Source: Nitrososphaerota archaeon (lineage in GTDB: Archaea > Thermoproteota > Nitrososphaeria > Nitrososphaerales > Nitrosopumilaceae). From it: a stretch of DNA of 32,000 nucleotides. Both the position numbers and the translations under genes were made by a program. Below are positions 2,446 through 28,372 of this stretch, in pieces. Each line of letters begins with the position of its first letter. Within the stretch, counting starts at the first letter, position 1. The DNA lies in contig JACRJT010000052.1 of assembly GCA_016215465.1 (NCBI GenBank), positions 22,113-54,112 on the forward strand, read 5' to 3'. Below the pieces are notes generated by a model. It had not been told where the DNA came from and made no database searches. It saw only the letters and a list, made by a program, of their open reading frames with translations.

Positions 2446-3411
2446 TTATTGATTGGACATCGTAATTTGCGGCGGAGTTGTTTTATTTGATGCACTTTGT
2501 TCAGGTATGACGGTATTGGATTTTGGAATTTGTATGGTAAAGGTGGTGCCCTTTCCAACGCTGCTTGTAACATTGATTATGCCTTTGTGTTGTTCAACTA
2601 TTGCCTTACAACTTGCCAATCCCAGACCAGTTCCTATTTGTTTTGTTGTAAATAATGGCTCAAATATTCGTGGCATTACGTCTTTGGGGATACCACTGCC
2701 GCCATCAATCACTTGCAATGTTGCATATTTGCCATCATCGGAAAGTCTGATATCAACTTCGCCGGAATTATTCATTGCCTGAATTGCGTTCATTATAAGA
2801 TTTGTAATCATTACTTCAAATTTTATAAAATCACATGGCACATACACAAAATTATTTGGAAGATTAATTTTTACATCATCGGGTTTTACTATTTTATCTA
2901 TTGCAGAGATAATAATTTCATTTAAAAGATTATTTGCAATAGTAAGTTTACTAGGTCTGACAAAGTCAAGCACTTCATCTATTTGATGAGATATTCTATT
3001 TATTGCTCGGTGCAATCTGCCATAACAAATAATCTTTTCTTCAATTCGGAGCTTTTGCTTACTTTCCATTATTTCGACAACATTTTTAATTACTGATAAT
3101 GGGTTTCGTAAATCGTGTGCAAGCCTTGCCGCCAGTTCGCCTATAACTTGAAGTTTTTCTGACTCATCCCTATTCCCAGGAGTGACTTGTTGTATCTGAA
3201 GGATAGAACTACATGTAATCCCAGATCTATCATGAAAATCTCTTATGGATTGCTCGTTTGGAGCATCCAAAATGCAATATAGTTTTTGTTGTGCATGATT
3301 GAAAAATACCTCTTTGGTGGAAATATGAGATTCATATTCCTTGTTTATGAGATTTTTGAATAGGGTTAGCGAATCAGCATCAATAAAGTGCTCATCAAGA
3401 AAAACAGGCAC
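2446..3411 (-). CDS. Soluble sensor histidine kinase with an N-terminal DUF4242-like domain, then HisKA and HATPase_c
   Basis: H-box ELAARLAHDLRNPLSVIKN. N/G boxes NLIMNAIQAM, DGGSGIP and GTGLGLASCK. The N-terminal ~75 aa (MPVFLDEH...KLYCILDAPNEQSIRDFHDRSGI...ILQIQQV) resembles the DUF4242 / SCO4226-like fold. No transmembrane segment is present. Confidence 0.85.
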   Translation of the reverse strand: MPVFLDEHFIDADSLTLFKNLINKEYESHISTKEVFFNHAQQKLYCILDAPNEQSIRDFHDRSGITCSSILQIQQVTPGNRDESEKLQVIGELAARLAHDLRNPLSVIKNVVEIMESKQKLRIEEKIICYGRLHRAINRISHQIDEVLDFVRPSKLTIANNLLNEIIISAIDKIVKPDDVKINLPNNFVYVPCDFIKFEVMITNLIMNAIQAMNNSGEVDIRLSDDGKYATLQVIDGGSGIPKDVMPRIFEPLFTTKQIGTGLGLASCKAIVEQHKGIINVTSSVGKGTTFTIQIPKSNTVIPEQSASNKTTPPQITMSNQ

Positions 3412-4349: not shown

Positions 4350-5519
4350 TTAAGAGTTATTTTTTGCAAGCAAGTTAGGCATACGAATTGTAAATGTAGT
4401 CGGAGTATTTTTTACAGATATGCTTCCACCGTGTTGTTCAATTATGTTTTTACAACTTGACAGTCCAAGGCCTGTTCCCCTCTGTTTTGTTGTAAACAAG
4501 GGATCAAAAATCTTGTCCAAATGCTCAGCAGGTATTCCCTGACCAGAATCTGCCACTTCAATTATTACATATTCTGATGTTTCCACATAGCGAACATAGA
4601 TCTTTCCAGGATTGTCCTCAATAGATTGAATTGAATTAAGTACGATATTTCCAAAAACGACTTCCATTTTTATTGGATCGCATTTCAAAATCACATCATT
4701 ATTTGGCAGATTCATTTGGATGTTTTTTGGGACGTTCAATGGTAAAATTGATGCTTTGATGATACCAATCAGCGATGTCGGCTCTAGTTTTAAAGGAGTT
4801 TTTTTGATGTAATCAAGTACACCATCAACTTGATGACTTATTCTAAAAATAGAATCATCCATCATTTCAAATCTTTTCATGACATACTCGTCTATTGGCT
4901 TGCCTTGGAATGTTTTGAGCAGTTTAACTGTGCTTTTGATTGTCGTTAGCGGATTTTTGATATCGTGTGCAAGCCTTGCTGAGAGCTCCCCTATGGTAGA
5001 TAGTTTTTCAGAGTCGAGAATCCTTTTTGTTTTCTCTATCACTTCGACTTCGAGTTGGTTTTTTCGTTGTTCTAGTTCTTCGTCGAGTTTTGAAATTGTG
5101 AGAAGATTTGTTTGCAATGTATCGTTTAGATGCTTTGTCAGCTGTTGCTCTTCTTCTAGATGTTTGTACATTAGTTTTATTTTACTTTCTTGGAATTCCT
5201 TGACAACCCCCAATGATTGATCAAATAATTTTTTTATTTCCTTGGATTGGCCAGATGGGTTAAGCTCATCGTCTTTGCCAACGTCTTTATCTTCATTGTC
5301 AGTTTGGGTTTTTAATTCTAAATTACTGCCAGACGGCTTAGACTCTGTCTGACTATCTGGTTTAAAATCATCCTTATCTAGGTCTTCTATCGTGGGCTGA
5401 TTTTTTGCATTTGGGTCTTTTTTAAAAAAGACGGTTCGCTCTGTAAAATTCATTGGATCCAAGTCTTTGGCTTGTACCGAAGATTCAGCATCTTCTTTTC
5501 TAATAATGAACCTACGCAC
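4350..5519 (-). CDS. Soluble histidine kinase with a low-complexity N-terminus and coiled coil, then HisKA and HATPase_c
   Basis: H-box ELSARLAHDIKNPLTTIKS. N/G boxes NIVLNSIQSI, DSGQGIP and GTGLGLSSCK. It is a paralog of the 2446..3411 kinase in the catalytic half. The N-terminal ~110 aa is D/E/K/P-rich and is followed by a coiled coil. No transmembrane segment is present. Confidence 0.85.
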   Translation of the reverse strand: MRRFIIRKEDAESSVQAKDLDPMNFTERTVFFKKDPNAKNQPTIEDLDKDDFKPDSQTESKPSGSNLELKTQTDNEDKDVGKDDELNPSGQSKEIKKLFDQSLGVVKEFQESKIKLMYKHLEEEQQLTKHLNDTLQTNLLTISKLDEELEQRKNQLEVEVIEKTKRILDSEKLSTIGELSARLAHDIKNPLTTIKSTVKLLKTFQGKPIDEYVMKRFEMMDDSIFRISHQVDGVLDYIKKTPLKLEPTSLIGIIKASILPLNVPKNIQMNLPNNDVILKCDPIKMEVVFGNIVLNSIQSIEDNPGKIYVRYVETSEYVIIEVADSGQGIPAEHLDKIFDPLFTTKQRGTGLGLSSCKNIIEQHGGSISVKNTPTTFTIRMPNLLAKNNS

Positions 5520-5669
5520 ACAATTGATGCAGACCTTCTTTTAAAAAAAATGTGTTTTTTTAATCGAACAAACAGATTCTAAGAATCATAATAATTAGTA
5601 AAAAGAAAATATGTGAATTTTTTGTACAAACACATGGTTAATTGGATTTTAATCGCAATTATAGAGTAA

Positions 5670-6053
5670 ATGAACAAGAGGGACACCATAATAATAATAG
5701 AAGACGACAAAGACATGGCCGAAATATTTGAAGAATGGGCAAAATCAGCAGACATTTCTGTTTTAGGCGTAGGCTATGATGGAAAGGAGGCAGTGGAATT
5801 ATTTGAAAAACACAAGCCACAAATTGTTGTACTGGATCTAATGATGCCATATTACGATGGGTTTTATGCAATGGAAAACATACGAAAAGTCGATCCAAAC
5901 GCAAAATTCCTAATTTTGACAGCAGATATCACAGATGGAACAAGGAAGAAACTCGGACAGATGAAGGCAATTTCATTGATGTACAAGCCTTACGATTTAG
6001 ACGATGTGATAAATGAGATTAAAAAACTTGTTAGCGTACAGGCAACAGCCTAA
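5670..6053 (+). CDS. Single-domain response regulator (CheY-like receiver only)
   Basis: All receiver signature residues are present: IIIIEDD, VVLDLMMP (phospho-acceptor Asp), LILTAD and YKP. The protein is 127 aa with no output domain. Confidence 0.9.
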   Translation: MNKRDTIIIIEDDKDMAEIFEEWAKSADISVLGVGYDGKEAVELFEKHKPQIVVLDLMMPYYDGFYAMENIRKVDPNAKFLILTADITDGTRKKLGQMKAISLMYKPYDLDDVINEIKKLVSVQATA

Positions 6054-6083
6054 TTTCCAGAAATTCAATTAAAAGGCAATTTT

Positions 6084-6302
6084 TTAATTTTTACAATATT
6101 TCAGCCAAACATCGTTTGATATCTGGGCATAGTGATGAAGGCAATTCTCACAAAATGATTCCCATTCATCAATCTTTAAAACGCTAAAGAACTCTTTTGT
6201 CCATTCATAAGATGGGGATTTTCTATATTGAAACTGCTGAATTGTGTAAATGTCCTTTTGATTAAACATGTTCAAGCACCTTTTGCATTCGGCGTTTTTC
6301 AC
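6084..6302 (-). CDS. Hypothetical small Cys-pair protein (possible zinc ribbon)
   Basis: Track ORF of 72 aa with CKRC near the N-terminus and CENC near the C-terminus. No family was recognised. Confidence 0.45.
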   Translation of the reverse strand: MKNAECKRCLNMFNQKDIYTIQQFQYRKSPSYEWTKEFFSVLKIDEWESFCENCLHHYAQISNDVWLKYCKN

Positions 6303-6370
6303 TAGTTTTCAAAATCATATCGATGATTTAGCAATTTCTACTCTCATTTTAGGAAAGATATCATACTAAG

Positions 6371-7003
6371 ATGCCAGAGGTAAAACTTGTAAAATTAAGA
6401 ATACTTTACACAAATCCAAAGCAAGAAATGTCACAAATCATTGATAAAATTATGAGTGAGGCATCCCCAATCAAAGAAATGCTGTACGGGCAGATAAATG
6501 CAATTTCAGAGCAGAAAATTCAGACGGAGATTTCAAAAAACAACACCGCCGATGTGATCAGGCACATGGTGAATAACTGCTATCCAAAAATTACCAAGTT
6601 AAACGGAGATCAGCACGAAAACTTTGAAGCGTTTGCAGAATCATTAATGCATTATTTACTTACAAATGCGTTGATTCCAAGCCAGAGAAAGGTGGCACTA
6701 AAATCCATAGAAATAGACATCGTAATTCCAGACGTTCGAACACTTGTTTCATCTCCAAAAGATGCACTAGTCATATTTTTCCCAAAAACAAAGAACGTAG
6801 ATGCGATGCAGGAATTACTAAAGAGGGTAGAAACCATACAACCAATAAAAGAAAACATTTGGTTGGTACAAAAAACAAGCCTTGGTCTTCATTACAAGAC
6901 ATACGAAATTGACAATGGCTGCTCGTTTTCCAACATGATAAATGACATCAATGCGTTCTGCTCCTCAAGGACACAGTCAAAATTTAAAATCTTTAAAGTG
7001 TGA
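6371..7003 (+). CDS. Hypothetical protein
   Basis: Track ORF of 210 aa, convergent with bioD (1-nt gap). No family was recognised. Confidence 0.55.
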   Translation: MPEVKLVKLRILYTNPKQEMSQIIDKIMSEASPIKEMLYGQINAISEQKIQTEISKNNTADVIRHMVNNCYPKITKLNGDQHENFEAFAESLMHYLLTNALIPSQRKVALKSIEIDIVIPDVRTLVSSPKDALVIFFPKTKNVDAMQELLKRVETIQPIKENIWLVQKTSLGLHYKTYEIDNGCSFSNMINDINAFCSSRTQSKFKIFKV

Positions 7004-7004
7004 A

Positions 7005-7724
7005 TTAGAGCGCAGACAGCATACCGTTTTCTATCAAGATTTTAGAGATTTTATCTGCGTTACACCCATCAACATGTGGAATAGTGCATAGCACGTCAAC
7101 CCCGCTAAGATTTTTCAGATCAGATGCAAGTTCGTCTACAGCATAGCCAGTGACATCAAAATTGTTTACGATTATTCCTTTTGTTTTGATCCCGTACTTT
7201 TTGCAAGTATCGCATGTCAGAAGAGTGTGATTTATGGTTCCAATTCTTGAGCTTGTCACTATAATAGCCTCAAGATTCATGTCTTTGATCAAATCAGCAA
7301 CACAGTAATCTTTGAGAATCGGCGTCATGATTCCACCAATTCCCTCAACTAGTACGGAGTCATGAAGTGATTGCAGTTTTTCAAATCTATCCAGTACCAA
7401 ACTGACATCGATTGCAGTTTTCAGCTTGTTTGCTGCCATGTATGGTGAAGCAGGAATTGGGAAAAAATACGGGTTCACTAGGCTTTCATCGTCTTTTGTG
7501 CCAGATGCCTCGACTAGAATTTTTACGTCTTCTGATTGATAGCCAGTCTTTTGTGAAATGCCAGTGGAAAAAGGCTTCATCACACCCACATCAATTCCGG
7601 AGTTTTTCATTGCCATTGCAAGTCCTGCAGTAAAACAGGTTTTTCCAATCCCAGTATCAGTTCCCGTAATAAAATAGGATTTCAACAGAAAAAATCCAGC
7701 TAGTTGCTTGATTAACCTTTTCAC
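7005..7724 (-). CDS. bioD: Dethiobiotin synthetase
   Basis: P-loop FITGTDTGIGKT near the N-terminus, plus EGIGG and SRIGTINHTLL motifs. The track start is GTG at 7724, and an alternative TTG at 7685 would put the P-loop at the usual distance from the N-terminus. Confidence 0.9.
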   Translation of the reverse strand: MKRLIKQLAGFFLLKSYFITGTDTGIGKTCFTAGLAMAMKNSGIDVGVMKPFSTGISQKTGYQSEDVKILVEASGTKDDESLVNPYFFPIPASPYMAANKLKTAIDVSLVLDRFEKLQSLHDSVLVEGIGGIMTPILKDYCVADLIKDMNLEAIIVTSSRIGTINHTLLTCDTCKKYGIKTKGIIVNNFDVTGYAVDELASDLKNLSGVDVLCTIPHVDGCNADKISKILIENGMLSAL

Positions 7725-7750
7725 CGCTTGATTATTAAAACAAAATCAAG
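7706..7750. promoter_or_regulatory. CTTGATT repeats in the bioD / bioABF divergent control region (candidate operator)
   Basis: GCTTGATTA occurs at 7706-7714 and 7726-7734 (direct). The inverted AATCAAG at 7744-7750 forms CTTGATT-N10-AATCAAG immediately upstream of the bioA ATG (7759). Confidence 0.35.
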
Positions 7751-7758
7751 TCATACAG

Positions 7759-9081
7759 ATGATGAAGCATCATAGTTACGTTTGGCATCCGTATACCCAG
7801 ATGGCCGAATGGGATTCTTTTACAAAGATTGTAAAGGGCCAAGGAATGTGGCTAGTGGATTCAAACGGGGACAAGATTCTTGATGGAGTGGCAAGCATGT
7901 GGTGCAACGTATGGGGCCACTCTAAAAAAGAGCTAATTTACGCAATAAAAAAACAATCAGAAAAGATAGTGCATTCATCGCTGTTCAACTTGACAAACGA
8001 GCAAGCAGAATTGCTTGCAAAAAGACTGGTAGAAATATCACCACGTATGAATAAGGTGTTTTATTCAGACGATGGCTCCACCGCGATGGAGATTTCATTC
8101 AAAATGGCCCTGCAGTACTGGCAAAATGAAGGCGAGAAAAACAAATCCCAGTTCGCGACCCTTCAAAACGGATACCATGGAGACACGTTTGGGGCGATGT
8201 CTGTAGGATATGTGCCGGGGTTTTTTTCCAAATTCAAAAACCACCTGTACAAAACAATTCAGATTCCTTTTGCAAACAGCTACAGGCTGCCCAACAACAC
8301 AACACCCAGAGAATATCAAGATCAGTGTTTAGGAAAAATTGAAAAATTGTTTTCAAATAACGACAAAATTGCAGCATTTGTCATGGAAAGCGGAGCACAG
8401 GTTGCAGGAGGAGTAAACATTTACCAGGATAGATTCCAAGAAGAGATCAGTAAACTGTGCAAAAAGCACGGAGTCTTGCTCATACTAGACGAAATCGCAA
8501 CAGGTTTTGGAAGACTGGGATCACTTGTCGAATACGTATCTCAAAACAGCAAGCCAGACATTGTGTCTTATGGAAAAATGTTAACTGGGGGATACATCAC
8601 AATGGCTGCAACGCTGGTAACAAAAAATATCTATGACTCGTTTTTGGGAAAATATTCCGACATGAGGCACATTTACCACGGCCACACGTTTACCGGAAAC
8701 CCACTATCATGCGCTGTTGCAAACGAAAATTTGAATTTGTACGAGAAAACCAACCTGATTAAAAAAATACAGAAAACCTCAAAGGTCTTTGAAAAAAGAA
8801 TGCATGAAATCCTCGACTTGAATATAGTAGGCGACATACGACACAAGGGCATGCTTATGGGAATAGAACTAGTACAAGATAGGAACAAAAAGACGCCTAT
8901 TTCCTTTAAAAAATCCACAAACAAGGTGGTTTTTGAAGAAGCAAGGAAAAATGGCATCTATCTTAGAACCCTCGGAAACATAGTCATGCTTGTTCCACCG
9001 CTCGCAATTTCGGAATCCGAATTAAACTATCTAATAGATGGAACAATACGTACAATCAAAAACATTGCAAAGCAATTGTAA
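7759..9081 (+). CDS. bioA: Adenosylmethionine-8-amino-7-oxononanoate aminotransferase
   Basis: Class-III PLP aminotransferase of 440 aa. N-terminal VWHPYTQM, then GYHGDTFGAMSV, DEIATGFGRLG and a PLP lysine context (SYGKMLTGG). Confidence 0.93.
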   Translation: MMKHHSYVWHPYTQMAEWDSFTKIVKGQGMWLVDSNGDKILDGVASMWCNVWGHSKKELIYAIKKQSEKIVHSSLFNLTNEQAELLAKRLVEISPRMNKVFYSDDGSTAMEISFKMALQYWQNEGEKNKSQFATLQNGYHGDTFGAMSVGYVPGFFSKFKNHLYKTIQIPFANSYRLPNNTTPREYQDQCLGKIEKLFSNNDKIAAFVMESGAQVAGGVNIYQDRFQEEISKLCKKHGVLLILDEIATGFGRLGSLVEYVSQNSKPDIVSYGKMLTGGYITMAATLVTKNIYDSFLGKYSDMRHIYHGHTFTGNPLSCAVANENLNLYEKTNLIKKIQKTSKVFEKRMHEILDLNIVGDIRHKGMLMGIELVQDRNKKTPISFKKSTNKVVFEEARKNGIYLRTLGNIVMLVPPLAISESELNYLIDGTIRTIKNIAKQL

Positions 9082-9126: not shown

Positions 9127-10128
9127 GTGAAAAATCGCTATTGTTTGATGATTCCTGATCATCAATTCATTTTAGATTGTCAGCAAAAGGTCCTAAACGG
9201 CATCAGCATCTCCGATTCGGACCTAGAAGGACTAATCAGCATACCAAAATCAGAACTAAAAACACTCTCAGATGCGGCAAATAAAATAACGCGCAAATTC
9301 GGCGGAGACAAAGTGGATGTTGAGCAGCTTGCAAACATCAAGAAAAACTATTGTAGTGAGGATTGTGCGTTTTGCGGTCAATCAGCATTCTTCAATACAG
9401 GAATTGACAGCTACCATCTTCTTCCAGCAGAAGAAATAGTAGAAAAGGCAAAAAAAGCTCTAGATGAAGGGGCAGAATCATATTGCCTTGTGGCAGCTTG
9501 GCGAGAGCCGTCAGAGTCAGACTTTCAAAAGGTTTGCAACATAATTGAGCAGATCAACAACCAGGTAGGAATTAGCGTAGAATGCAGTTTGGGCTTTCTT
9601 ACGATGAGTCAGGCAAAACAGCTAAAGTCACTGGGGGTACGCAGGTATAACCACAATTTAGAAACATCGAGATCAAAATTTCCTCAGATTTGCACAACTC
9701 ACACATATCAGGATAGAATTGACACTCTCCTAATAGCACGCCAAGCAGGACTTGAACTATGCACAGGCGGAATAATAGGGATTGGTGAAACAAGGAGTCA
9801 GCGACTAGAGTTGATTTTGGACTTGGCAAAGATGAGTCCAGAAGAAGTTACGATAAATTTACTTGTTGCAATTCCTGGAACCCCACTTGAATTGCAGACG
9901 CCGCTACCGCTTGAAGAAATATTGCGCATGTTTGCAGTCACAAGATTCGCACTACCAAAAGCAATAATCAAAATTTCCGGAGGCCGAGAAGTGCATCTAA
10001 AAGACGGTGGCGAGGAACTGCTCCTAAGCGGTGCAAACGGCATCATCAGTTCTGGCTATCTGACTATGGACGGAAACGAGATGAAAAAAGACTTGGAAAT
10101 GATTAGAAAAATAAATCTTGAAGCCTAA
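9127..10128 (+). CDS. bioB: Biotin synthase (radical SAM)
   Basis: Radical-SAM motif CSEDCAFCGQS, plus YNHNLETS and GGIIGIGE motifs typical of BioB. The track start is GTG, and an ATG lies 7 codons in. Confidence 0.93.
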   Translation: MKNRYCLMIPDHQFILDCQQKVLNGISISDSDLEGLISIPKSELKTLSDAANKITRKFGGDKVDVEQLANIKKNYCSEDCAFCGQSAFFNTGIDSYHLLPAEEIVEKAKKALDEGAESYCLVAAWREPSESDFQKVCNIIEQINNQVGISVECSLGFLTMSQAKQLKSLGVRRYNHNLETSRSKFPQICTTHTYQDRIDTLLIARQAGLELCTGGIIGIGETRSQRLELILDLAKMSPEEVTINLLVAIPGTPLELQTPLPLEEILRMFAVTRFALPKAIIKISGGREVHLKDGGEELLLSGANGIISSGYLTMDGNEMKKDLEMIRKINLEA

Positions 10129-11251
10129 ACTCGAATTTGTAAACCATCTTTTAAGAGAGATAAAGAAAGAAGATCTACACAGGCAGCTACGCTATGGCCA
10201 CGTCAGTGAATCACACATAACAATGGGAACAAAAAAACTCATTAATCTTTGCTCAAACGACTATCTAGGATTACAAGTAAAGAAAAACCAAGTAAACCAA
10301 TTGCAGTCAAGCTCACGCCTAGTCTCTGGGAATGATATTTTGTTTAGAAAATTGGAAAAAAAACTTGCAGAGCATAAATCACAGAAAGCGTCACTTGTAT
10401 TCCCAACTGGATACATGGCAAATCTAGGAGTTATTTCTGCGCTGGTCGGAAAAAAAGATCTAATACTAAGCGACGAGCTAAACCACGCAAGCATTATTGA
10501 TGCGTGCAAGATAACTGGCGCAAAAGTACAAGTTTACAAACACAACAACATGGAAGATTTGGCAAAAAAAATCAACGTGCACAATAAGATACGAAAGTTC
10601 GTAATCACCGAAGGAATCTTCAGCATGGAGGGAGACTATGCTAAACTAAAACAGATGACAGAGATCACTGAAAAAAATAACGCGATTTTAATTTTAGATG
10701 ATGCGCATGGGGATTTTGCAGTAGGCGATGACGGCAGGGGCACTGCAAATCTTTTTGGAGTCGATAAAAAAATTGATGCATATGTAAGCAGCCTAAGTAA
10801 GGCGCTTGGCTCTTTTGGCGGATATGTCGCGGCACATGATTCTATCATAGATCTGTGCATAAACCGCTCAAAATCATTCATCTACACGTCTGCACTGCCT
10901 TCATTTCTTGTCAAGATGTCACTTGACAGATTTGAGCAGGACAGAAAAACGCGGCAGATGGCACTCAAAAAAAATACAGCATTACTTGCTACAGGACTAA
11001 AAGAAATCGGTTACGACATAAAATCACCCACACACATAATTCCCATCATAATTGGAAAGGAAAAAAAGACGCTTGATTTTGGAAAATACCTATTTGAATG
11101 TGGAGTATTTGCCCAACCAATACGATATCCAACGGTTCCAAAAAACAGTGCGAGAATCAGAATTTCTGTTACGGCATGGATTTCAAAAAAGCAAATAGAG
11201 TACACGCTATCAGTTTTTGAAAAAGCAGGAAAAAAGTTTAAGATTTTCTAG
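10118..11251 (+). CDS. bioF: 8-amino-7-oxononanoate synthase
   Basis: Alpha-oxoamine synthase family: SNDYLGL, NHASIIDA, DDAHG, and SLSKALGSFGG containing the PLP lysine. The TTG start overlaps the bioB 3' end by 11 nt. Confidence 0.9.
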   Translation: MKPKLEFVNHLLREIKKEDLHRQLRYGHVSESHITMGTKKLINLCSNDYLGLQVKKNQVNQLQSSSRLVSGNDILFRKLEKKLAEHKSQKASLVFPTGYMANLGVISALVGKKDLILSDELNHASIIDACKITGAKVQVYKHNNMEDLAKKINVHNKIRKFVITEGIFSMEGDYAKLKQMTEITEKNNAILILDDAHGDFAVGDDGRGTANLFGVDKKIDAYVSSLSKALGSFGGYVAAHDSIIDLCINRSKSFIYTSALPSFLVKMSLDRFEQDRKTRQMALKKNTALLATGLKEIGYDIKSPTHIIPIIIGKEKKTLDFGKYLFECGVFAQPIRYPTVPKNSARIRISVTAWISKKQIEYTLSVFEKAGKKFKIF

Positions 11252-13361: not shown

Positions 13362-14018
13362 ATGGGGTCGTTAAGTGACAGATGGAATGACGTAGGACGC
13401 GGGGATAATCTCTCACAAAAAATACTAGACAGAGTAAAGCCAGACGTACCACTCAAAAATAAGATAGACGTAGCGCAGAAAAACCTCCAGCTTCAGATAG
13501 TAAAACTAGATGGAATCGCATCAAAAATAAAGCAGAAAAATGATTATATTTTTAATAAAATAATTGTCGCTCAAAGAGCCAACAACCAACATTATGCCAA
13601 AGCATATGCTACAGAATTACTTGAGATAAGAAAAATGCACAACATGGTAAACGGTGCAAAACTTGCCTTAGAACAGATTCAGCTCAGACTAAACACAGTA
13701 TCAGAACTTGGAGACATCGTAGTAACGCTAAGCCCATGCATGTCAGTAATCAAAGGACTAGGCGCATCATTGAGCGGAATAATGCCAGAGGCAACGTCAT
13801 CAATGCAAAACCTATCCCAAGTTCTAGGAGATGTGTTGACAGGCTCCTCGATGAACGCCTCAGATACCGCAGTCACAACATACAGTTCGAGCTCAGATAC
13901 GCTTGCAATTCTTGAAGAGGCTCAGGCAGTAATCGAAGGCCAGACAAGAGCAAGCATCCCAGAGCCGCCAAGCGGAATTCCAACTGGGATTCTACAGAAA
14001 AAAGAATCATTCATTTAG
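13362..14018 (+). CDS. cdvB: ESCRT-III / Snf7-family protein (CdvB paralog)
   Basis: Protein of 218 aa with the helical-hairpin pattern typical of archaeal CdvB/Vps2-24 proteins (LQLQIVKLDGIASKIKQK..., AKAYATELLEIRKM..., LALEQIQLRLNTV.ELGD). The C-terminus is S/T/P-rich. Confidence 0.8.
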   Translation: MGSLSDRWNDVGRGDNLSQKILDRVKPDVPLKNKIDVAQKNLQLQIVKLDGIASKIKQKNDYIFNKIIVAQRANNQHYAKAYATELLEIRKMHNMVNGAKLALEQIQLRLNTVSELGDIVVTLSPCMSVIKGLGASLSGIMPEATSSMQNLSQVLGDVLTGSSMNASDTAVTTYSSSSDTLAILEEAQAVIEGQTRASIPEPPSGIPTGILQKKESFI

Positions 14019-14406: not shown

Positions 14407-14497
14407 AATATTGAATTTAGGAACAGGGATTTAACAGAGGTGTTTGTTCAATTAAAACAAAATACAGGATATTACTCATACGATTTTAGAGAAACCA

Positions 14498-15020: not shown

Positions 15021-15314
15021 TTACTTTTGTTTATTTAGTTTCAATAATGCCTGATGATCATAAGTATTGTATGGAGATGAATAAGATCTGTATTTCATAT
15101 TCCACTTGAAATAAGGATGGCCAGAACATAATTCGTCACCGCATACTTGGTTTCCAACCCATTTCGAGTATTTGTGCCTAAGCGTATTTGATACATCATC
15201 ATTAGATGCTTTCTTTGCTTCTGCAAAGTGACCTGAGCTAATTGCGCTGATCATAGTCATTGACAATAATACGCTCATCATTACAAGTGCAACTAATCGC
15301 AACATGATTTGCAT
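15021..15314 (-). CDS. Small secreted Cys-motif protein, paralog A
   Basis: Signal-peptide-like N-terminus ending AEA. Conserved block HKYSKWVGNQVCGDELCSGHP is shared with the 15435..15668 ORF. Promoter geometry suggests the real start is the in-frame ATG at 15305 (MLRLVAL...). Confidence 0.6.
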   Translation of the reverse strand: MQIMLRLVALVMMSVLLSMTMISAISSGHFAEAKKASNDDVSNTLRHKYSKWVGNQVCGDELCSGHPYFKWNMKYRSYSSPYNTYDHQALLKLNKQK

Positions 15315-15334: not shown

Positions 15335-15352
15335 AGTAATCATTTTTTGTTG

Positions 15353-15377
15353 TTTCAAAATTCGAATTTAGAAATAT
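15353..15377 (+). repeat. 25-nt quasi-palindromic element, copy a (TTTCAAAATTCGAATTTAGAAATAT)
   Basis: Exact 25-mer. The core AAATTCGAATTT is a perfect palindrome. The TTCGAA centre lies 33 bp upstream of the TTAATTAA box of the paralog A gene. Confidence 0.9.
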
Positions 15378-15434
15378 TGAATTTTGTTGCACTAGGGCAC
15401 GAAAGAGTGTAAAAAATGAGCGAGTTTTTGTTTC

Positions 15435-15668
15435 CTATTTGTTCGGAGAGCTCTTTCCTATCTTAGTCGGTACTTTATAGACAGGGGTTCCTTCGCATAG
15501 TTGGTCTCCACATACTTTGTTATTGTACCATTTACTGAACTTGTGTTTTGGTGATAGTTTTGCAGGCTTTGCTTCTGCATATTGTTCAGATGATAGAGCC
15601 ATGACCAATATTGTAGACAGGAGGATAGTTATTGCCACAAGTCCGAGTATTTTGCCAGCCATGCTCAA
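15435..15668 (-). CDS. Small secreted Cys-motif protein, paralog B
   Basis: Signal-peptide-like N-terminus ending AEA. Conserved block HKFSKWYNNKVCGDQLCEGTP. The track start is TTG at 15668, and the in-frame ATG at 15662 (MAGKILG...) is the more likely start. Confidence 0.6.
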   Translation of the reverse strand: MSMAGKILGLVAITILLSTILVMALSSEQYAEAKPAKLSPKHKFSKWYNNKVCGDQLCEGTPVYKVPTKIGKSSPNK

Positions 15669-15683
15669 TTTTTTAATTCCTAG

Positions 15684-15691
15684 TTAATTAA
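15684..15691 (-). promoter_or_regulatory. TATA-like box TTAATTAA for the paralog B gene
   Basis: The box centre is 25.5 nt upstream of the in-frame ATG at 15662, consistent with a leaderless transcript. Confidence 0.45.
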
Positions 15692-15705
15692 CTGATCTTT
15701 TCATA

Positions 15706-15730
15706 ATATTTCTAAATTCGAATTTTGAAA
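15706..15730 (-). repeat. 25-nt quasi-palindromic element, copy b (exact, reverse orientation)
   Basis: The reverse complement of 15706-15730 is identical to copy a over 25/25 nt (26/26 including one inner flanking base). Its centre lies 32 bp upstream of the TTAATTAA box of the paralog B gene. Confidence 0.9.
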
Positions 15731-15741
15731 TATACAGTTTT

Positions 15742-16209
15742 TTAGGCATGAGAATTGTTACGAGTGCTCATCAGTGCGTCTTTTATCAGCATACGATGAT
15801 GCGGAATTATCCTAGTTGGAAGTCTTGCAAAAAACCTATGATCGCTGCTTTGGTGGTCGGTTTTTAGATGACCACCCTTAATGGAAACGACAAATCCATG
15901 GGATACGTCGTGACGAAACGAATCCAGACTTTCGTAGACGCCGACAAATTTCTTAATTTTTACGTCAAGACCGAGTTCTTCTTTTGCAGAACGCTTTACA
16001 GTATCAGTCATTTTCTCAGTTTTGTGTATCATACTACCAGGCAGATGCCAATATCCCTTGTATGGGTTTCTAGTTCGTTTTGTCAGCAAAACGGATTTTC
16101 CATCAAATATTACCAAGTCAACACAGGAAAAAGCAAAATATTTTCTAAAATTATCGTATTCTTTTTTTGGGGCTATTCTTATTTTCTGATTTTTTGGCTG
16201 TTTTTTCAT
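15742..16209 (-). CDS. Nudix hydrolase
   Basis: Nudix box GSMIHKTEKMTDTVKRSAKEELGLDV (G-x5-E-x7-R-E-x2-E-E-x-G pattern) in a 155-aa ORF. Confidence 0.85.
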   Translation of the reverse strand: MKKQPKNQKIRIAPKKEYDNFRKYFAFSCVDLVIFDGKSVLLTKRTRNPYKGYWHLPGSMIHKTEKMTDTVKRSAKEELGLDVKIKKFVGVYESLDSFRHDVSHGFVVSIKGGHLKTDHQSSDHRFFARLPTRIIPHHRMLIKDALMSTRNNSHA

Positions 16210-16271
16210 GTGTTACGAATCAGGACATTCGTTAATTTGAAGTATTTCGATTTTTTACTAAATATTTTAAT

Positions 16272-16294
16272 TTGTTCGTAAAAGCTAAACCCCC
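16272..16294. repeat. Repeat word A: TTGTTCGTAA-AAGCTAAACCCCC
   Basis: It shares TTGTTCGTAA with word B (direct) and AAGCTAAACCCC with word C (direct). Its C-run is complementary to the G-run of word B. Confidence 0.7.
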
Positions 16295-16351
16295 ATACAG
16301 GCAACCCTCAATTGTGAACAAGGTGATTTTTTTAGGATCAGTCATTTTTCA

Positions 16352-16375
16352 GGGGGGTTTAACACTTGTTCGTAA
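16352..16375. repeat. Repeat word B: GGGGGGTTTAACAC-TTGTTCGTAA
   Basis: It is an inverted copy of word C (16/19 over GGGGTTTAnCnnTTGTTCG) and pairs with word A over 10/11 nt. Confidence 0.7.
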
Positions 16376-16440
16376 CCAATGCAGGCAAGTGCCAAAACAT
16401 CCCCATTACCCAGATAAAGGTGCCAAACCTATTTGCATCC

Positions 16441-16461
16441 CGAACAAAAGCTAAACCCCGG
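16441..16461. repeat. Repeat word C: CGAACAA-AAGCTAAACCCCGG
   Basis: See words A and B. The B/C pair forms an imperfect 19-bp inverted repeat around a 65-nt spacer. Confidence 0.7.
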
Positions 16462-16668
16462 TAAAAATCGATTTTTTGGTAAAAAACTAACAATAACTGT
16501 CTGATTTTTTGGTGTTTTTGACACAAACCATACCAGTAAAGATTCTCATTTTATGCGCAAATTCCAAATTCTTTTGCCCTAGTTTATGGTAAAAGGGTGG
16601 GTCTTTTTAGATAAAACTGGGCCAAACTTTTCGCAGTGGGACGAGGAAAAGTATCCAAAGTGAATTTT

Positions 16669-17208
16669 TTATTGGATTGAGGACGGTTTTCTCAAATATG
16701 CCATGGTATACGCCAAGCCGCCGCACATTACACCCAAGGCAAGAAAGCCAATGAATAACCCAATTGGCGGAATAAATGAATCCATCACTGCAAGATTTTG
16801 TTTGCCAATTTCCCCTGTTGAAAACAAGTCCATTACTCCAGAACCGCTAAGTCCTGCAAATATCATAAGCAGTGTTGTGCCAGTTCCACCCACATTCATT
16901 CCTATTAGATGAATCCAAGCTAAAATTTTGGATTTGCCAGAAAAATTTCGTTTTAGATTAATTTCCAAATGACTGTAAAATACGGCAGTTACTGCTATTG
17001 CGACAATCAGTATCAGGTAGAACATCAATCCAAGAAAGACCCATTTTGCCGGCCCCTCAAAAGACACGGATAGGAATTGAATCATGTTAACTTTGGTAAA
17101 AACAGCCTGGGCGCCAACCATGCTTAGCGCCATTATAGTTATGATGCCGCCCTGCAGTATTGCGGCAATTATGAATCGATTTCCCCAAGTACTTTTGACG
17201 TCTTCCAC
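16669..17208 (-). CDS. Hypothetical integral membrane protein (about 5 hydrophobic segments)
   Basis: Track ORF of 179 aa with hydrophobic helices throughout. No family was recognised. Confidence 0.6.
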   Translation of the reverse strand: MEDVKSTWGNRFIIAAILQGGIITIMALSMVGAQAVFTKVNMIQFLSVSFEGPAKWVFLGLMFYLILIVAIAVTAVFYSHLEINLKRNFSGKSKILAWIHLIGMNVGGTGTTLLMIFAGLSGSGVMDLFSTGEIGKQNLAVMDSFIPPIGLFIGFLALGVMCGGLAYTMAYLRKPSSIQ

Positions 17209-17270
17209 GGAGAATTCTTCACATGGTTGGTTAAAAAGTTCTGTCAGACGCAGATATCGTAAAACGTGAT

Positions 17271-17525
17271 CTATACTGCGGCGGTTTTTTCTAGGATTTT
17301 TCTAGCTTCAACTATCTCTATTTCCACAGTTTCCAGCGGATCGTCAACTTGGTTTCTTCTAATTGAGAAAAGCTTTGGTTTTTCAAAGTCCACGGTGCAG
17401 TCAGGGCACCCATACACCAAAACCCTATGCTCGTTTGGCGCTTTTGGGTTTGAAAGGCGCGGGTAATACACCAGTCTTGCCCCACAGTCAACACAGTATC
17501 TGTTGGCCCTTTTAATTCTGGCCAT
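17271..17525 (-). CDS. Hypothetical zinc-ribbon protein
   Basis: Protein of 84 aa with CVDC...CPDC Cys pairs. The ATG is preceded by GGAGG with a 6-nt spacer. It is preferred over the overlapping alternative-frame ORF 17318..17548. Confidence 0.55.
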   Translation of the reverse strand: MARIKRANRYCVDCGARLVYYPRLSNPKAPNEHRVLVYGCPDCTVDFEKPKLFSIRRNQVDDPLETVEIEIVEARKILEKTAAV

Positions 17526-17612
17526 CGTAAACCTCCTGCATTATTCATAATGTGCGATCAGATATTAGATCCAGACGGTCTAATAGAGTAAACCAAATGG
17601 TTGCATCGATCT

Positions 17613-17637
17613 ATATTTCTAAATTCGAATTTTGAAA
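17613..17637 (-). repeat. 25-nt quasi-palindromic element, copy c (exact, reverse orientation)
   Basis: The reverse complement of 17613-17637 is identical to copy a over 25/25 nt. It lies about 90 nt upstream of the zinc-ribbon gene ATG. Confidence 0.9.
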
Positions 17638-17695
17638 GATTGAAAATTAAACTCCAAATCAATGTGTCATGAATTGCAAGATGCAAAAACAAATG

Positions 17696-17720
17696 TTTCA
17701 GAACTCGAATTTAGAAAGAT
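17696..17720 (+). repeat. 25-nt element, degenerate copy d (TTTCAGAACTCGAATTTAGAAAGAT, 22/25)
   Basis: Three mismatches to copy a. It is inverted relative to copy c with a 58-bp spacer and ends 4 nt from the 3' end of tRNA-Asn. Confidence 0.75.
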
Positions 17721-17724
17721 TATG

Positions 17725-17798
17725 CGCCGCCCGTCAGACTTGAACTGACGACCCCCTGATTAACAGTCAGGCGCTCTACCACGCTGAGCTAGGGCGGC
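17725..17798 (-). tRNA. tRNA-Asn (anticodon GUU), no intron, CCA not encoded
   Basis: Hand-folded cloverleaf of 74 nt. Acceptor GCCGCCC/GGGCGGC, D stem GCUC/GAGC, anticodon stem CCUGA/UCAGG with loop CU-GUU-AA, T stem GUCAG/CUGAC with loop UUCAAGU, discriminator G. Confidence 0.9.
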
Positions 17799-17858
17799 AA
17801 CAGGTTTTGTCTTAGGCGTATGCGATTTAATCCTTACTAAGTTTGAAAATTCGAAAAA

Positions 17859-18422
17859 TTATTTTTCGATACCTTTTGCCTTGTAGAATTGGTAGATTCC
17901 ATCAAGGAAAACTCGGTGATCTTTGTTTTTGACTTTGGTGTTTGATTGGATTTCTGCTGCAGTTTGTGTTACGTGTTGCAGCACTGGTCCCGATACGACT
18001 ACCTCGTCTCCTTTTGAGGTGACTTTGGTTGTTCCGTGGATTTTTGCAGTTCTTGGTGCGCGCTCTCCTTGGAAGTTTTCAACTAAGACAAGCTTGTCTT
18101 TTGTTTTGACAGTAATTGGAAAGTGCGCATAGACTATTTTCATTTTTATTGTATAGCCCTCAATTACTCCCTCACATAAGGTTCTGATGATTGAAAGTGC
18201 GGTGTTTGCAATTGCGTGATATTTTTTCCTCGAGTTTATGGCTGTGATGGTTACCTTGTTGTCTTTGACTTCAAGGCCTACTGGGATTTTCTTGAAATTC
18301 TTGTATGTTTTACCTAGTGGTCCCTCAATGTGTAACATGTGTTTTTTGAGTGTAAGATTTACTTTTGCAGGAACATCAAATGTAGCTTGGAATATTTCTT
18401 CTTGTTTAGTAGACATATCCAA
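17859..18422 (-). CDS. rpl6: Ribosomal protein uL6
   Basis: Protein of 187 aa with a two-repeat L6 fold sequence. It is positioned directly after uS8 in the operon. Confidence 0.93.
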   Translation of the reverse strand: MDMSTKQEEIFQATFDVPAKVNLTLKKHMLHIEGPLGKTYKNFKKIPVGLEVKDNKVTITAINSRKKYHAIANTALSIIRTLCEGVIEGYTIKMKIVYAHFPITVKTKDKLVLVENFQGERAPRTAKIHGTTKVTSKGDEVVVSGPVLQHVTQTAAEIQSNTKVKNKDHRVFLDGIYQFYKAKGIEK

Positions 18423-27429: not shown

Positions 27430-27858
27430 ATGGGATGTAGCGTGCGATTTGAGATTCCATTTTACGGCCACGAAAATGTCAGAGCGTTTCACGCAAGAAC
27501 AATAGAGATCACAACTGAGCCTGATCTTACAATACAGGGAGATTGTATTATCGGAGTTTCTGCAGAATGTGGCTGCAAAGACATTCCAAAAAAACTAAAG
27601 GAAAAACTAAGAGATAAGCGATCTACAGTCACACTTTCAATTCAAGTAAACGATGAAATTTTTCAAGTTGCTGGGAATGGAAATCCAGATCTGATACTAG
27701 AACACCCACACGACATAGTGATTAGGAAAAGTAAGTTTTTGTGCCCAAGGACATTGGCAATAGATTGCGACAAGGCATCAAATGACATTCCACGCAAAAT
27801 GATAAAGATGTTGCAAAGCCCGCAAACAAAGGGTGTCTTTGTGATCGAAGTTACTTGA
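27430..27858 (+). CDS. DUF371-family protein
   Basis: Protein of 142 aa. The pattern GHENVRAFHARTIEITTEPDLTIQGDCIIGV matches my recollection of the archaeal DUF371 family. Confidence 0.65.
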   Translation: MGCSVRFEIPFYGHENVRAFHARTIEITTEPDLTIQGDCIIGVSAECGCKDIPKKLKEKLRDKRSTVTLSIQVNDEIFQVAGNGNPDLILEHPHDIVIRKSKFLCPRTLAIDCDKASNDIPRKMIKMLQSPQTKGVFVIEVT

Positions 27859-28372
27859 TCTTTTTTTGTGATGTGTAGTCTTTTGTTTCCAAAGCCTTTG
27901 CAGTTGCGCGATTGACAATTTCCATTAGAAGAAATTCTCCGTAACCTTGCTTGTCTGTCTTTTTTTGCAGCGCTGGTTTTTTTGCAATGCCTTCAAGAAT
28001 TTTTTCAATCTTTGCAGATGTGTTTTCTATGATTGAAGAATACTTGGTGTCAAAATCTTTTGAGGAATGATTCCCAAGAAACTTAGTCGACGTGCCGTAG
28101 AATTTTGCAACTGCCCCCCTCACTTCTTCAATTTTTACGATTTCAATTAGGCCTGCTTCTTTTAGAATGTCGATGTGATGTCGAACGGTAGTTATTGCCT
28201 TGTTGTGACCTGTTTTTTGCAACTCCTTTGTGATTTGTTCTGCTGTGAGTCTTTTGTGATACAGAATTTCCACAATTTTTGCCCGTGCTGGGTCTTCGAG
28301 TGCACGTGCATGTTCAACTGAAATTGTCATTATGCGACTAATTTTGATTGGTTTTTCAAGTAATGTAGACAT
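27851..28372 (-). CDS. ArsR-like winged-helix transcriptional regulator with a C-terminal extension
   Basis: The sequence LEDPARAKIVEILYHKRLTAEQITKEL....AITTVRHHIDILKEAGLIE is an ArsR/SmtB-type HTH. Total length is 173 aa. Confidence 0.75.
   Translation of the reverse strand: MSTLLEKPIKISRIMTISVEHARALEDPARAKIVEILYHKRLTAEQITKELQKTGHNKAITTVRHHIDILKEAGLIEIVKIEEVRGAVAKFYGTSTKFLGNHSSKDFDTKYSSIIENTSAKIEKILEGIAKKPALQKKTDKQGYGEFLLMEIVNRATAKALETKDYTSQKKIK

Follow-up and report, generated by a model that had tools for sequence, protein, structure and literature searches.

Why does a 25-nt sequence recur three times without change, close to a tRNA gene and several small genes, in the chromosome of an ammonia-oxidizing archaeon (AOA)? 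The window (the whole 32-kb stretch of DNA analysed) was first searched for exact and near-exact copies. The 25-mer was found at 15353-15377 (+), 15706-15730 (-) and 17613-17637 (-), with a 3-mismatch copy at 17696-17720 (+), and none was expected in 100 dinucleotide-preserving shuffles. The repeat reported in the preliminary description is therefore real. The half-site TTTGAAAATTCGAA reported at 17842-17855 is also present, although as a 14-nt half-site it lies at 17839-17852 and has 2 mismatches. The geometry described for the two small secreted-protein genes was confirmed, ie the centres of the TTAATTAA boxes lie 33 and 32 bp from the TTCGAA centres and 25.5 nt from in-frame ATGs. Two corrections were needed. 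Firstly, the repeated unit is a 28-bp perfect palindrome, ATRTTTCWAAAYTC|GARTTTWGAAAYAT, and conservation falls off sharply beyond 14 bp on either side of the dyad. Secondly, the supposed copy at 10125-10143 on the bioB/bioF overlap is not a site, as it has 9 of 28 mismatches and its core is explained by conserved coding sequence at that junction. The features of the locus are as follows.

14413-14426, minus strand: relic half-site (CTGTTCCTAAATTC, 2 mismatches), just upstream of the 131-aa gene; Nitrososphaera and Nitrosotalea have a full site at this position.
15021-15314, minus strand: the 97-aa small secreted-protein gene, a paralogue of the 77-aa gene, downstream of site a.
15350-15377, no strand: site a, TTGTTTCAAAATTCGAATTTAGAAATAT, between the two small secreted-protein genes, with 1 mismatch to the 28-mer consensus; an orthologous site is present in 4 other Nitrosotenuis genomes.
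15435-15668, minus strand: the 77-aa small secreted-protein gene, the only gene in the 328-bp segment bounded by sites a and b.
15706-15733, no strand: site b, ATATTTCTAAATTCGAATTTTGAAATAT, with 0 mismatches to the consensus; its centre lies 22 nt after the Nudix stop and 52 nt before the start of the 77-aa gene.
15742-17525, minus strand: the segment between sites b and c, with a Nudix gene (15742-16209), a conserved non-coding block (16255-16480), a 179-aa membrane protein (16669-17208) and an 84-aa Zn-ribbon protein (17271-17525).
17613-17640, no strand: site c, ATATTTCTAAATTCGAATTTTGAAAGAT, with its centre 102 nt upstream of the Zn-ribbon gene ATG and a conserved GATCGAT flank.
17693-17720, no strand: site d, ATGTTTCAGAACTCGAATTTAGAAAGAT, which ends 3 nt from the tRNA-Asn 3' end and forms a pair with site c at 80 bp centre to centre.
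17724-17798, minus strand: tRNA-Asn(GTT), flanked by site d and half-site e.
17839-17852, plus strand: lone half-site e (AAGTTTGAAAATTC, 2 mismatches), upstream of tRNA-Asn.

The site was then followed through other AOA. Exact matches occur in Nitrosopumilus, Nitrosarchaeum, Nitrosotenuis, Nitrosotalea, Nitrososphaera and Nitrosomirales, including genomes with 52-61% GC. Information content is confined to the 28 bp. The two half-sites vary independently: the W positions read TA 75, TT 12, AA 9 and AT 6 times, and the R/Y positions read A..T 44, G..T 17, A..C 16 and G..C 16 times. The spacer is YTCGAR, with TCGA nearly invariant, and the whole can be read as 11-6-11, like dif, or as 13-2-13; gamma-delta res site I is 28 bp.

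All 89 chromosomal sources from genomes share one set of neighbouring gene families, as do 112 of 113 chromosomal (non-element) metagenome stretches, and there are 2-6 intergenic copies in this neighbourhood, spread over 2-8 kb. Eleven complete chromosomes gave one 8-kb block each. The order runs from the ribosomal-protein operon through tRNA-Asn and the Zn-ribbon gene onward to the cdvB-type, thioredoxin-like and bio genes. A pair of sites 56-84 bp apart beside tRNA-Asn recurs across Nitrosopumilaceae. Both small secreted-protein genes and the Nudix gene are absent from one Nitrosotenuis locus (L053), which has a single site there.

The preliminary description favoured an upstream operator next to the TATA boxes of leaderless genes, for which a positional bias toward promoters would be expected. 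Across 173 sites in the 89 sources there was no such bias, with 21 sites between convergent genes, 7 between divergent genes and 107 in tandem contexts. Site-to-start distances ranged from 35 to 132 nt depending on the gene family: 102 nt for the Zn-ribbon gene (101-102 nt in 15 of 24 loci of this family), 91-132 for the cdvB-type gene, 63 for bioB, 37-85 for DUF2299 and 35-42 for the 113-aa family. Conserved copies also sit 23 nt after the stop of a PNPOx-like gene, 2-3 nt after the bioF stop and directly on the tRNA-Asn 3' end. The operator geometry fits only copies a and b, and the chromosomal copies lie in one neighbourhood per genome rather than being spread over a regulon. The earlier interpretation is thus supported only in part: it was right that the element is non-random, dyad-symmetric and of a protein-binding type, and its measurements are correct, but its preferred reading is poorly supported. 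Its alternative, inverted pairs bounding cassettes, is closer to the evidence, although the sites are not MITE terminal repeats.

Segments bounded by two sites are inverted or differ in content between relatives. The inversions, with breakpoints exactly in the sites, affect bioB-bioF in Nitrososphaera and a 3-kb segment in another lineage. When locus L078 was compared with locus L016, 885-4161 aligned in minus orientation, 4457-6692 in plus orientation and 6662-7999 in minus orientation, and the breakpoints fall at sites 4456-4483 and 6666-6693; a third locus, L068, shares the L016 arrangement. Between loci L023 and L057, an inverted 3.1-kb segment ends at the L023 site 6448-6475 and at the L057 site 4812-4839.

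A candidate recombinase was found in one family only. A 214-aa protein with Resolvase (E 9e-32) and HTH_7 domains matches Tn3 and gamma-delta resolvase over its full length (E 1e-16). It is present in 10 Nitrososphaeraceae loci, in 7 of 9 a site lies 320-640 bp upstream of its start, and it is 81-100% identical across many members of the family. No recombinase gene was found in the 32-kb window or in any Nitrosopumilaceae or Nitrosotalea locus, and searches for a widespread orthologue of the Nitrososphaeraceae resolvase outside that family returned none.

The site also occurs on small circular elements of about 4.3 kb. Of 50 IMG/VR hits, 47 are circles of 4.1-4.8 kb with exactly one site, set in a roughly 46-bp palindrome, and no recombinase or Rep gene was found in them. 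Tandem multimer contigs exist, but the junction in the heteromultimer contig L176 is not at the site, and no integrated element copies were found.

With regard to position, the ribosomal-protein operon and the bio/thioredoxin block converge on the cluster, and cumulative GC skew peaks at 15-16 kb. The locus lies at 0.444 of the Nitrosotenuis DW1 chromosome record, and the neighbourhood about 44% of the way round the chromosome from the cdc6-adjacent origin; the N. maritimus record starts at its ORB/cdc6 origin (PMC5797428). The evidence for a terminus location is indirect. The CdvB-type protein of the window has a single Cys at residue 126, as Nmar_0816 has at C123 (PMC3684127).

Taken together, these observations lead us to propose, tentatively and with somewhat less than even confidence, that each copy is a 28-bp binding site for a dimeric protein and the crossover or binding site of a site-specific recombination system of the res/dif/cer kind. 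In this view pairs of copies can recombine, and the normal role would be to resolve chromosome dimers, and multimers of the small circles that carry one copy; it may be the dimer-resolution site of AOA, which are reported to lack XerA. The analysis itself establishes the anatomy and conservation of the site, its restriction to a single locus, its intergenic placement without promoter bias, the site-bounded inversions, the neighbouring serine recombinase gene in Nitrososphaeraceae and the copy on circular elements. That a recombinase acts on the site, that the role is dimer or multimer resolution, and which as yet unidentified protein would be its partner in Nitrosopumilaceae, including the organism of this window, are matters of inference. 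Some results do not sit easily with the proposal. Among them are the lack of a recombinase gene in the window, in the Nitrosopumilaceae and Nitrosotalea loci and in the circles, the lack of integrated element copies, the junction of contig L176 away from the site, the indirect evidence for a terminus location, and the several copies with a palindromic centre, unlike dif. The four sites are stable and orthologous across five Nitrosotenuis genomes, with no homogenisation within a genome, and no inversion polymorphism was seen within one Nitrososphaeraceae species. Rare inversions could also arise by homologous recombination between 28-bp repeats. In the elements, the site sits between divergent genes and abuts a TATA-like TTTAAGAT box, which also fits an operator.

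Two other explanations are unlikely, the two about equally so. In the first, that of the preliminary description, the palindrome would be the operator of a conserved AOA regulator, for example an ArsR-type winged-helix protein such as the 173-aa protein at 27851-28372, which would control the adjacent small genes; the circles would copy the site so that this host factor controls their divergent promoters. The box geometry of copies a and b and the many sites upstream of a gene are consistent with this, and in the elements the site lies in an 83-bp divergent intergenic region with the TTTAAGAT box about 25 nt before the start codon. An HTH_20/ArsR protein is a frequent neighbour in Nitrosopumilus, and the independent variation of the half-sites fits any dimeric binder. 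Against it, besides the excess of convergent over divergent contexts, the copies at 3' ends and the inconsistent distances, the neighbouring genes are functionally unrelated, conservation of all 28 positions across a whole class is unusual for an operator, and this reading does not predict the site-bounded inversions.

In the second, the sites would organise or segregate the chromosome, like matS/MatP or parS/ParB, with an array of palindromes bound by a dimeric protein marking the terminus-proximal region for segregation or for coupling to Cdv-based cell division, and the circles carrying one copy to hitch-hike on that machinery. The single cluster of several palindromic copies conserved across a class, its place at the convergence of the flanking operons and next to a cdvB-type gene, the stability of the orthologous sites, and the copy on circles without recognisable maintenance genes are in its favour. 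However, no ParB-, MatP- or SegB-like gene was seen in the neighbourhood, known centromere-like sites tolerate positions inside genes whereas these are strictly intergenic, and the adjacent resolvase gene in Nitrososphaeraceae is left unexplained.

A replication-origin element is very unlikely. The palindromes and the conserved block at 16255-16480 would in that case recruit host initiators, and the circles would use the site as their origin. The repeats are clustered in intergenic DNA at one locus, the block has inverted G-string repeats around an A/T-rich spacer, and the circles lack any replication gene. Against this, no orc1/cdc6 gene is present in the window or in any locus, the N. maritimus origin is next to ORB repeats and cdc6 at the start of the record and was correctly predicted as such (PMC5797428, PMC4164010), the flanking operons point towards the cluster rather than away from it, and ORBs are bound by monomers and are not perfect palindromes. 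MITE-like terminal repeats or a transcribed terminator hairpin, suggested by the inverted orientation of a/b and c/d, the variable gene content between sites in Nitrosotenuis and the many sites 2-30 nt after stop codons, are largely refuted, since there are no target-site duplications and no genome-wide spread, the positions are stable within a genus and orthologous across genera, RNA hairpins are weak (-1.2 to -4 kcal/mol, z-scores from -1.1 to +1.3), about 20-35% of sites have non-complementary half-site combinations, ie no covariation, and a terminator would not be confined to one locus.

Among described systems, the Xer/dif sites (XerCD in bacteria, XerA/dif in Thermococcales and Sulfolobales, XerL/dif in Legionella) share the 28-bp length, the AT-richness, the possible 11-bp inverted arms and 6-bp centre, the intergenic position with flanking genes that vary between lineages, and high conservation across a large taxon. 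The cluster lies in the half of the chromosome opposite the origin, and a review gives 122-180 degrees from oriC for archaeal dif (PMC5357621). The arms are perfectly symmetric, as in the single-recombinase Legionella dif (PMC9765430), and S. solfataricus also has two copies at one place (PMC2958812). However, dif is normally single-copy with an asymmetric spacer, whereas here there are 2-6 copies and the YTCGAR centre is itself palindromic. Only about 9 of 28 positions match the P. abyssi dif, ATTGGATATAATCGGCCTTATATCTAAA, Thaumarchaea are reported to lack XerA, and the only recombinase seen next to the sites is a serine, not a tyrosine, recombinase.

The crossover sites of small serine recombinases (Tn3/gamma-delta res site I, hix/gix of Hin/Gin invertases, two-subsite res of Sin/beta) are likewise 26-28 bp near-palindromes bound by a dimer, with a 2-bp central overlap that can be symmetric. 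The resolvase gene within 0.3-0.6 kb in Nitrososphaeraceae and the inverted segments fit this comparison, and the pair of sites 56-84 bp apart resembles a two-subsite res. The AOA system differs in being chromosomal and conserved across a class rather than carried on a transposon or plasmid, in the absence of a nearby recombinase gene in Nitrosopumilaceae, and in having sites up to kilobases apart, with no enhancer or accessory-site architecture shown. As with the cer/psi sites of small plasmids and the IMEX elements that exploit host Xer, circles with no recombinase gene carry one copy of the host chromosomal site, but without integrated copies flanked by sites and with the site between divergent promoter-like regions, and a shared function would be by analogy only. 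As in the pdif modules of Acinetobacter plasmids, several recombination-type sites bound small gene modules whose content differs between relatives, but the arrangement here is chromosomal, largely stable and orthologous, and the modules hold conserved housekeeping-type genes such as bioBF and cdvB-type, not accessory cargo.

The 25-mer TTTCAAAATTCGAATTTAGAAATAT was found exactly at 15353-15377 (+), 15706-15730 (-) and 17613-17637 (-), with a 3-mismatch copy at 17696-17720 (+), and no matches were expected on the basis of 100 dinucleotide-preserving shuffles. The half-site at 17842-17855 was also present. For the two small secreted-protein genes the TTCGAA centre lay 33 or 32 bp from a TTAATTAA box, which was itself 25.5 nt from an in-frame ATG. 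The observation made in the preliminary description is real, and it proved considerably larger than could be seen from the sequence alone. One further copy proposed there, at the bioB/bioF overlap, has 9 of 28 mismatches and reflects a coincidence with conserved coding sequence. The window is archaeal and AT-rich, with GC between 0.34 and 0.42. On the + strand it carries bioD, bioA, bioB, bioF, a DsbD-like gene and a thioredoxin-like gene. These are followed by a CdvB1/B2-type ESCRT-III gene, two small secreted paralogues, a Nudix gene, a 460-nt gene-free stretch, a membrane protein and an 84-aa Zn-ribbon protein, and then by tRNA-Asn and the ribosomal-protein operon starting with L6, S8 and L5 on the - strand. 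Scans against Rfam found only the tRNA-Asn. The features referred to below are as follows.

15350-15377, 28-bp site a
15706-15733, 28-bp site b
17613-17640, 28-bp site
17693-17720, 28-bp site
17839-17852, lone half-site
14413-14426, lone half-site
13362-14018 (+), CdvB-type ESCRT-III gene
16255-16480, conserved non-coding block, within the gene-free stretch 16210-16668
17271-17525 (-), gene for the 84-aa Zn-ribbon protein

One genome per species was scanned with TTTCNAAATTCGAATTTNGAAA, which gave at least 120 stretches falling into two classes. Contigs of bacterial genomes with 50-69% GC (Pyrinomonadaceae, Anaerolineae, NC10 and a deltaproteobacterium; L003, L005, L007, L009, L015, L018, L020, L034, L037, L043, L069, L086, L091, L101 and others) have G/C at the two free positions and carry AT-only palindromic tracts, ATTTCGAAATTCGAATTTCGAAAT, made of TTCGAAA/TTCGAAT units, with several per genome. 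This is a different element. All other hits came from ammonia-oxidizing archaea (AOA) of every major lineage, including sponge-associated genomes with 52-61% GC, and share ATRTTTCTAAATTCGAATTTAGAAAYAT. The symmetrised information content showed that conservation stops at +/-14 bp from the dyad, ie the unit is 28 bp long, with 11-bp inverted arms (ATRTTTCWAAA and TTTWGAAAYAT) around a 6-bp centre. A search on the arms alone gave the centre as YTCGAR, with TTCGAA found 133 times, TTCGAG 17, CTCGAG 14 and CTCGAA 9. The two halves vary independently, as about 20% of sites have non-complementary W positions and about 35% have non-complementary R/Y positions. Predicted RNA hairpins were weak, and no better than those of shuffled sequence. 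This is the signature of a symmetric dimer on duplex DNA and not of a transcribed hairpin. A literature search for the core 12-mer found no AOA paper containing it, and we found no description of the motif in the searchable literature.

ORFs were called in all 89 AOA sources, clustered and mapped, and every source was found to belong to one extended syntenic neighbourhood. In Nitrosopumilus and Nitrosarchaeum the order is ...S4e-L5-S8-L6-(tRNA-Asn)-[site pair]-Zn-ribbon-[site]-DUF2299-...-[site]-PNPOx-ArsR-like..., and in Nitrosotalea and Nitrososphaera it is bioA-bioB-bioF-(DsbD-Trx)-[site]-cdvB-type/113-131-aa gene-[site]. The window contains both blocks. In Nitrosotalea and Nitrososphaera the cdvB-type gene and its convergent 113-131-aa partner are bracketed by two sites. 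There are four sites in the window, four orthologous sites are retained across five Nitrosotenuis genomes, and elsewhere there are 2-6 per locus. A second, independent scan of metagenome contigs with the full 28-mer gave 120 stretches, of which 112 hold genes of the same neighbourhood, 7 are small circular elements and 1 is something else. One metagenome contig, L205, carries a perfect site at 2094-2121 among genes that match neither the host neighbourhood nor the 4.3-kb elements described below, and may be another element type. Eleven complete AOA chromosomes each contributed a single 8-kb block.

Of 173 sites with up to 3 mismatches, 163 lie outside ORFs, although ORFs cover 81% of the DNA. 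Their contexts are 107 tandem, 21 convergent and only 7 divergent. Distances to start codons range from 35 to 132 nt, but some distances to one neighbour are strikingly fixed, ie 101-102 nt to the Zn-ribbon ATG in 15 loci, 23 nt after the PNPOx stop and 2-3 nt after the bioF stop, whereas the gene on the other side of the site varies. The pattern argues against a promoter operator with a regulon, and also against a general terminator or a dispersed mobile element. The Zn-ribbon protein of the window is 98% identical to that of Candidatus Nitrosotenuis sp. DW1, and about 70-99% identity is seen across Nitrosopumilaceae and Nitrosotalea. It has a C-terminal helix and no Pfam or NCBIfam family, and its gene sits 101-102 nt from the site pair next to tRNA-Asn. 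It is a candidate DNA-binding partner only, and the AlphaFold model was too poor to use (pLDDT 63). A protein of roughly 108 aa made almost entirely of AKRRAAPKRKAAKR-type repeats is encoded directly beside the site that follows the PNPOx-like gene in Nitrosopumilus (locus L112, 1951-2277; also L094, L106, L107 and L089), and could be a nucleoid-associated protein. In high-GC, probably sponge-associated, Nitrosopumilus chromosomes (L004, L019 and L080), IS630-type (DDE_3) transposase genes cluster around the sites.

The position of the cluster on the chromosome was considered from gene order, local skew and published origins, in the absence of a replication profile or whole-genome skew. The ribosomal-protein operon and the opposite gene block point towards the cluster in three genera, and in the window the cumulative GC skew peaks at 15-16 kb. 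In the complete Nitrosotenuis DW1 genome the locus lies at 0.444 of the record. The window's CdvB-type protein has a single cysteine, at residue 126, and Nmar_0816, which is the polymer-forming CdvB, is reported to be the only N. maritimus CdvB paralogue with a cysteine, at C123 (PMC3684127). The N. maritimus record begins at its ORB/cdc6 origin (PMC5797428), which was correctly predicted by Ori-Finder 2 (PMC4164010). As locus tags in that genome run to roughly 1,800-1,850, tag 0816 is again at about 44%. We infer that the cluster lies about 160 degrees from oriC, which would be within the range reported for archaeal dif (PMC5357621).

Evidence for recombination came firstly from Nitrososphaeraceae, in which the bioB-bioF pair is bracketed by two sites. 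Locus L078 reads bioD< bioA> resolvase< [site] bioB> bioF> [site] f9> cdvB< (the symbols give gene direction, and f9 is a gene label), and loci L102, L114 and L013+L042 read the same way. Loci L016 and L068 have the same flanks but an inverted bioBF segment. In a blastn alignment of L078 against L016 the orientation switches at 4457 and at 6662-6692, positions which fall inside the two 28-bp sites. A second inversion was found in a different lineage (L023 against L057 and L120), where a 3.1-kb segment is inverted with its ends at the L023 site 6448-6475 and the L057 site 4812-4839. These two independent inversions between species are comparative evidence, and do not prove that an enzyme acted. 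The content between sites also varies among Nitrosotenuis genomes, as locus L053 lacks the two secreted-protein genes and the Nudix gene.

The gene next to the sites in 10 Nitrososphaeraceae loci encodes a 214-aa small serine recombinase, with Resolvase (E 9e-32) and HTH_7 (E 8e-11) domains, which matches Tn3 and gamma-delta resolvase over its full length (E 1e-16). It is 81-100% identical across many members of the family, and in 7 of 9 loci a site lies 320-640 bp upstream of its start. The gene (L047 1085-1729; L078 3295-3942; L016 4995-5588) is embedded in the biotin operon between bioA and bioB, an unusual, housekeeping-like position for a resolvase or invertase. A 28-bp dimer site with a symmetric 2-bp centre is what such enzymes use. 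However, a profile built from 129 serine recombinases found none in the window, in Nitrosopumilaceae or Nitrosotalea loci, or in the circular elements, and gave hits only in Nitrososphaeraceae and unrelated mobile elements. Relatives of the resolvase outside Nitrososphaeraceae are rare, sit in mobile-element-like contexts and have no sites nearby. Concerted evolution of sites within a genome was not supported, with 3.3 mismatches within genomes against 2.6 between orthologous sites, and no inversion polymorphism was observed in 10 contigs of one Nitrososphaeraceae species. The possibility that the hybrid half-site pattern of sites a and b was an integration scar was set aside, as the pattern is not conserved in Nitrosotenuis DW1. 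Rare homologous recombination between 28-bp repeats could also produce inversions.

A scan of IMG/VR returned 50 contigs, of which 47 are 4.08-4.75 kb with terminal redundancy, which marks them as assembled circles, and have a GC of 0.37-0.43. Each has exactly one AOA-type site, embedded in a longer palindrome such as AGATCTTAAATGTTTCTAAATTCGAATTTAGAAACATTTAAGATCT, which points to thaumarchaeal hosts. Together with related metagenome contigs they form a large, apparently undescribed family of circular elements of about 4.1-4.8 kb, mostly marine (IMG/VR and metagenome contigs L122-L171, L172-L178 and L184-L193). They encode about ten small ORFs with no Pfam or PHROG match, and no Rep or recombinase gene. 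A 246-aa protein of the elements, which may be a fibre or receptor-binding protein (one relative carries a tail-collar domain), has at least 116 relatives at the 90% clustering level. These sit almost only on contigs of 4-5 kb or on tandem multimers of 8.5-11 kb, in Tara, hydrothermal-vent and other marine data, and never in long host contigs. A tblastn search with element ORFs found nothing in the 89 host sources, there was no homology between element ORFs and host genes lying between sites, and all contigs carrying element genes were monomers or tandem multimers, ie no integrated copies flanked by two sites were observed. Both homo- and hetero-multimers exist, but the heteromultimer contig L176 could not be taken as a product of recombination at the site, because the switch between variants lies elsewhere. 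One other viral hit, L146, was an unrelated podovirus-like contig with the motif inside an ORF. In the elements the site lies in an 83-bp divergent intergenic region and abuts a TTTAAGAT box about 25 nt before the start of the structural-gene block. The elements therefore borrow a host site, as a recombinase-less element carrying a mimic of that site would. That fits a cer-like resolution site, and it fits an operator read by a host protein equally well.

The architecture, AT-richness, intergenic placement and conservation all match Xer/dif, and the position inferred from indirect evidence would do so as well. However, dif is single-copy with an asymmetric centre, and the sequence is unrelated to the P. 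abyssi dif, to which only about 9 of 28 positions are identical. Thaumarchaea are reported to lack xerA, and the authors suggested that another recombinase had been recruited (PMC2958812); no Xer-type recombinase gene was present in the window. The site matches the crossover site of a small serine recombinase equally well, as it can be read as 13-2-13 with an invariant central CG and res site I is also 28 bp, and in one family it has such an enzyme next door. We therefore do not class it as a dif site or as a res site, but tentatively as a site-specific recombination site that differs from dif in its several copies and symmetric centre, and that has no recombinase gene nearby in the window. 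The 28-bp anatomy, the conservation across the class, the confinement to one locus, the inversions bounded by sites, the neighbouring resolvase gene in Nitrososphaeraceae and the copy on the circular elements were all shown by the analysis, whereas the position relative to oriC, the binding and cleavage of the site by a recombinase, and any role in dimer resolution are inferred.

A more far-reaching reading is not ruled out, although we consider it unlikely. In this view AOA, which are reported to lack XerA, may resolve chromosome dimers, or otherwise manage the terminus, through a previously undescribed multi-site system built on a perfectly symmetric 28-bp site. It would be served by a domesticated Tn3-type serine recombinase in Nitrososphaeraceae and by an unidentified protein in Nitrosopumilaceae, and a widespread family of roughly 4.3-kb circular marine elements with no replication or recombination genes would parasitise the same site. 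AOA are among the most abundant archaea on Earth, and finish and separate their single-origin chromosome by means as yet unknown. A 28-bp site that is conserved across the class, confined to one locus and prone to recombination gives a concrete handle, as it can be used to recover the partner protein, predicts the terminus-proximal region, offers a candidate resolvase in Nitrososphaera, links an unrecognised family of tiny circular elements to AOA hosts, and may be a natural docking or recombination site for genetic tools in organisms that currently have none. Even if it turns out to be regulatory or architectural, it would be among the most conserved non-coding DNA motifs in this class.

Two other explanations, each unlikely, remain about equally possible, ie a chromosome-organising or segregation site and a transcription-factor operator. 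The latter was the reading preferred in the preliminary description, whose interpretation was only partly supported. A dimeric binder is consistent with the independent variation of the half-sites, but there is no bias towards promoters at a consistent distance, and all chromosomal hits lie in one neighbourhood next to functionally mixed genes and not at dispersed, related targets. An origin element is very doubtful, as no cdc6 gene is present in any source, whereas the N. maritimus oriC is next to cdc6. The non-coding block at 16255-16480 remains unexplained in this respect. About 200 nt are conserved at the DNA level across Nitrosotenuis, Nitrosotalea, Nitrosopumilus and Nitrosarchaeum, always inside the site cluster, and hold three copies of a roughly 20-nt unit (TTGTTCGTAAAAGCTAAACCCCC; inverted GGGGGGTTTAACACTTGTTCGTAAC; CCGAACAAAAGCTAAACCCC), the first two of which flank an A/T-rich spacer with an invariant GATTTTTTCA. 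Alignment folding found only one invariant 9-bp stem and no covariation, and there is no Rfam family, so that the block is either an unknown ncRNA or a DNA-level element. Least likely are terminal inverted repeats of a MITE, the alternative raised in the preliminary description, or a terminator, since the sites occupy a single locus at orthologous positions without target-site duplications, only the content between them varying, and the RNA folds are weak with no covariation.

Elsewhere in the window, two paralogous histidine kinase genes, at 2446-3411 (-) and 4350-5519 (-), share 60-80-nt DNA repeats about 1.85 kb apart, with a single-domain response regulator at 5670-6053.
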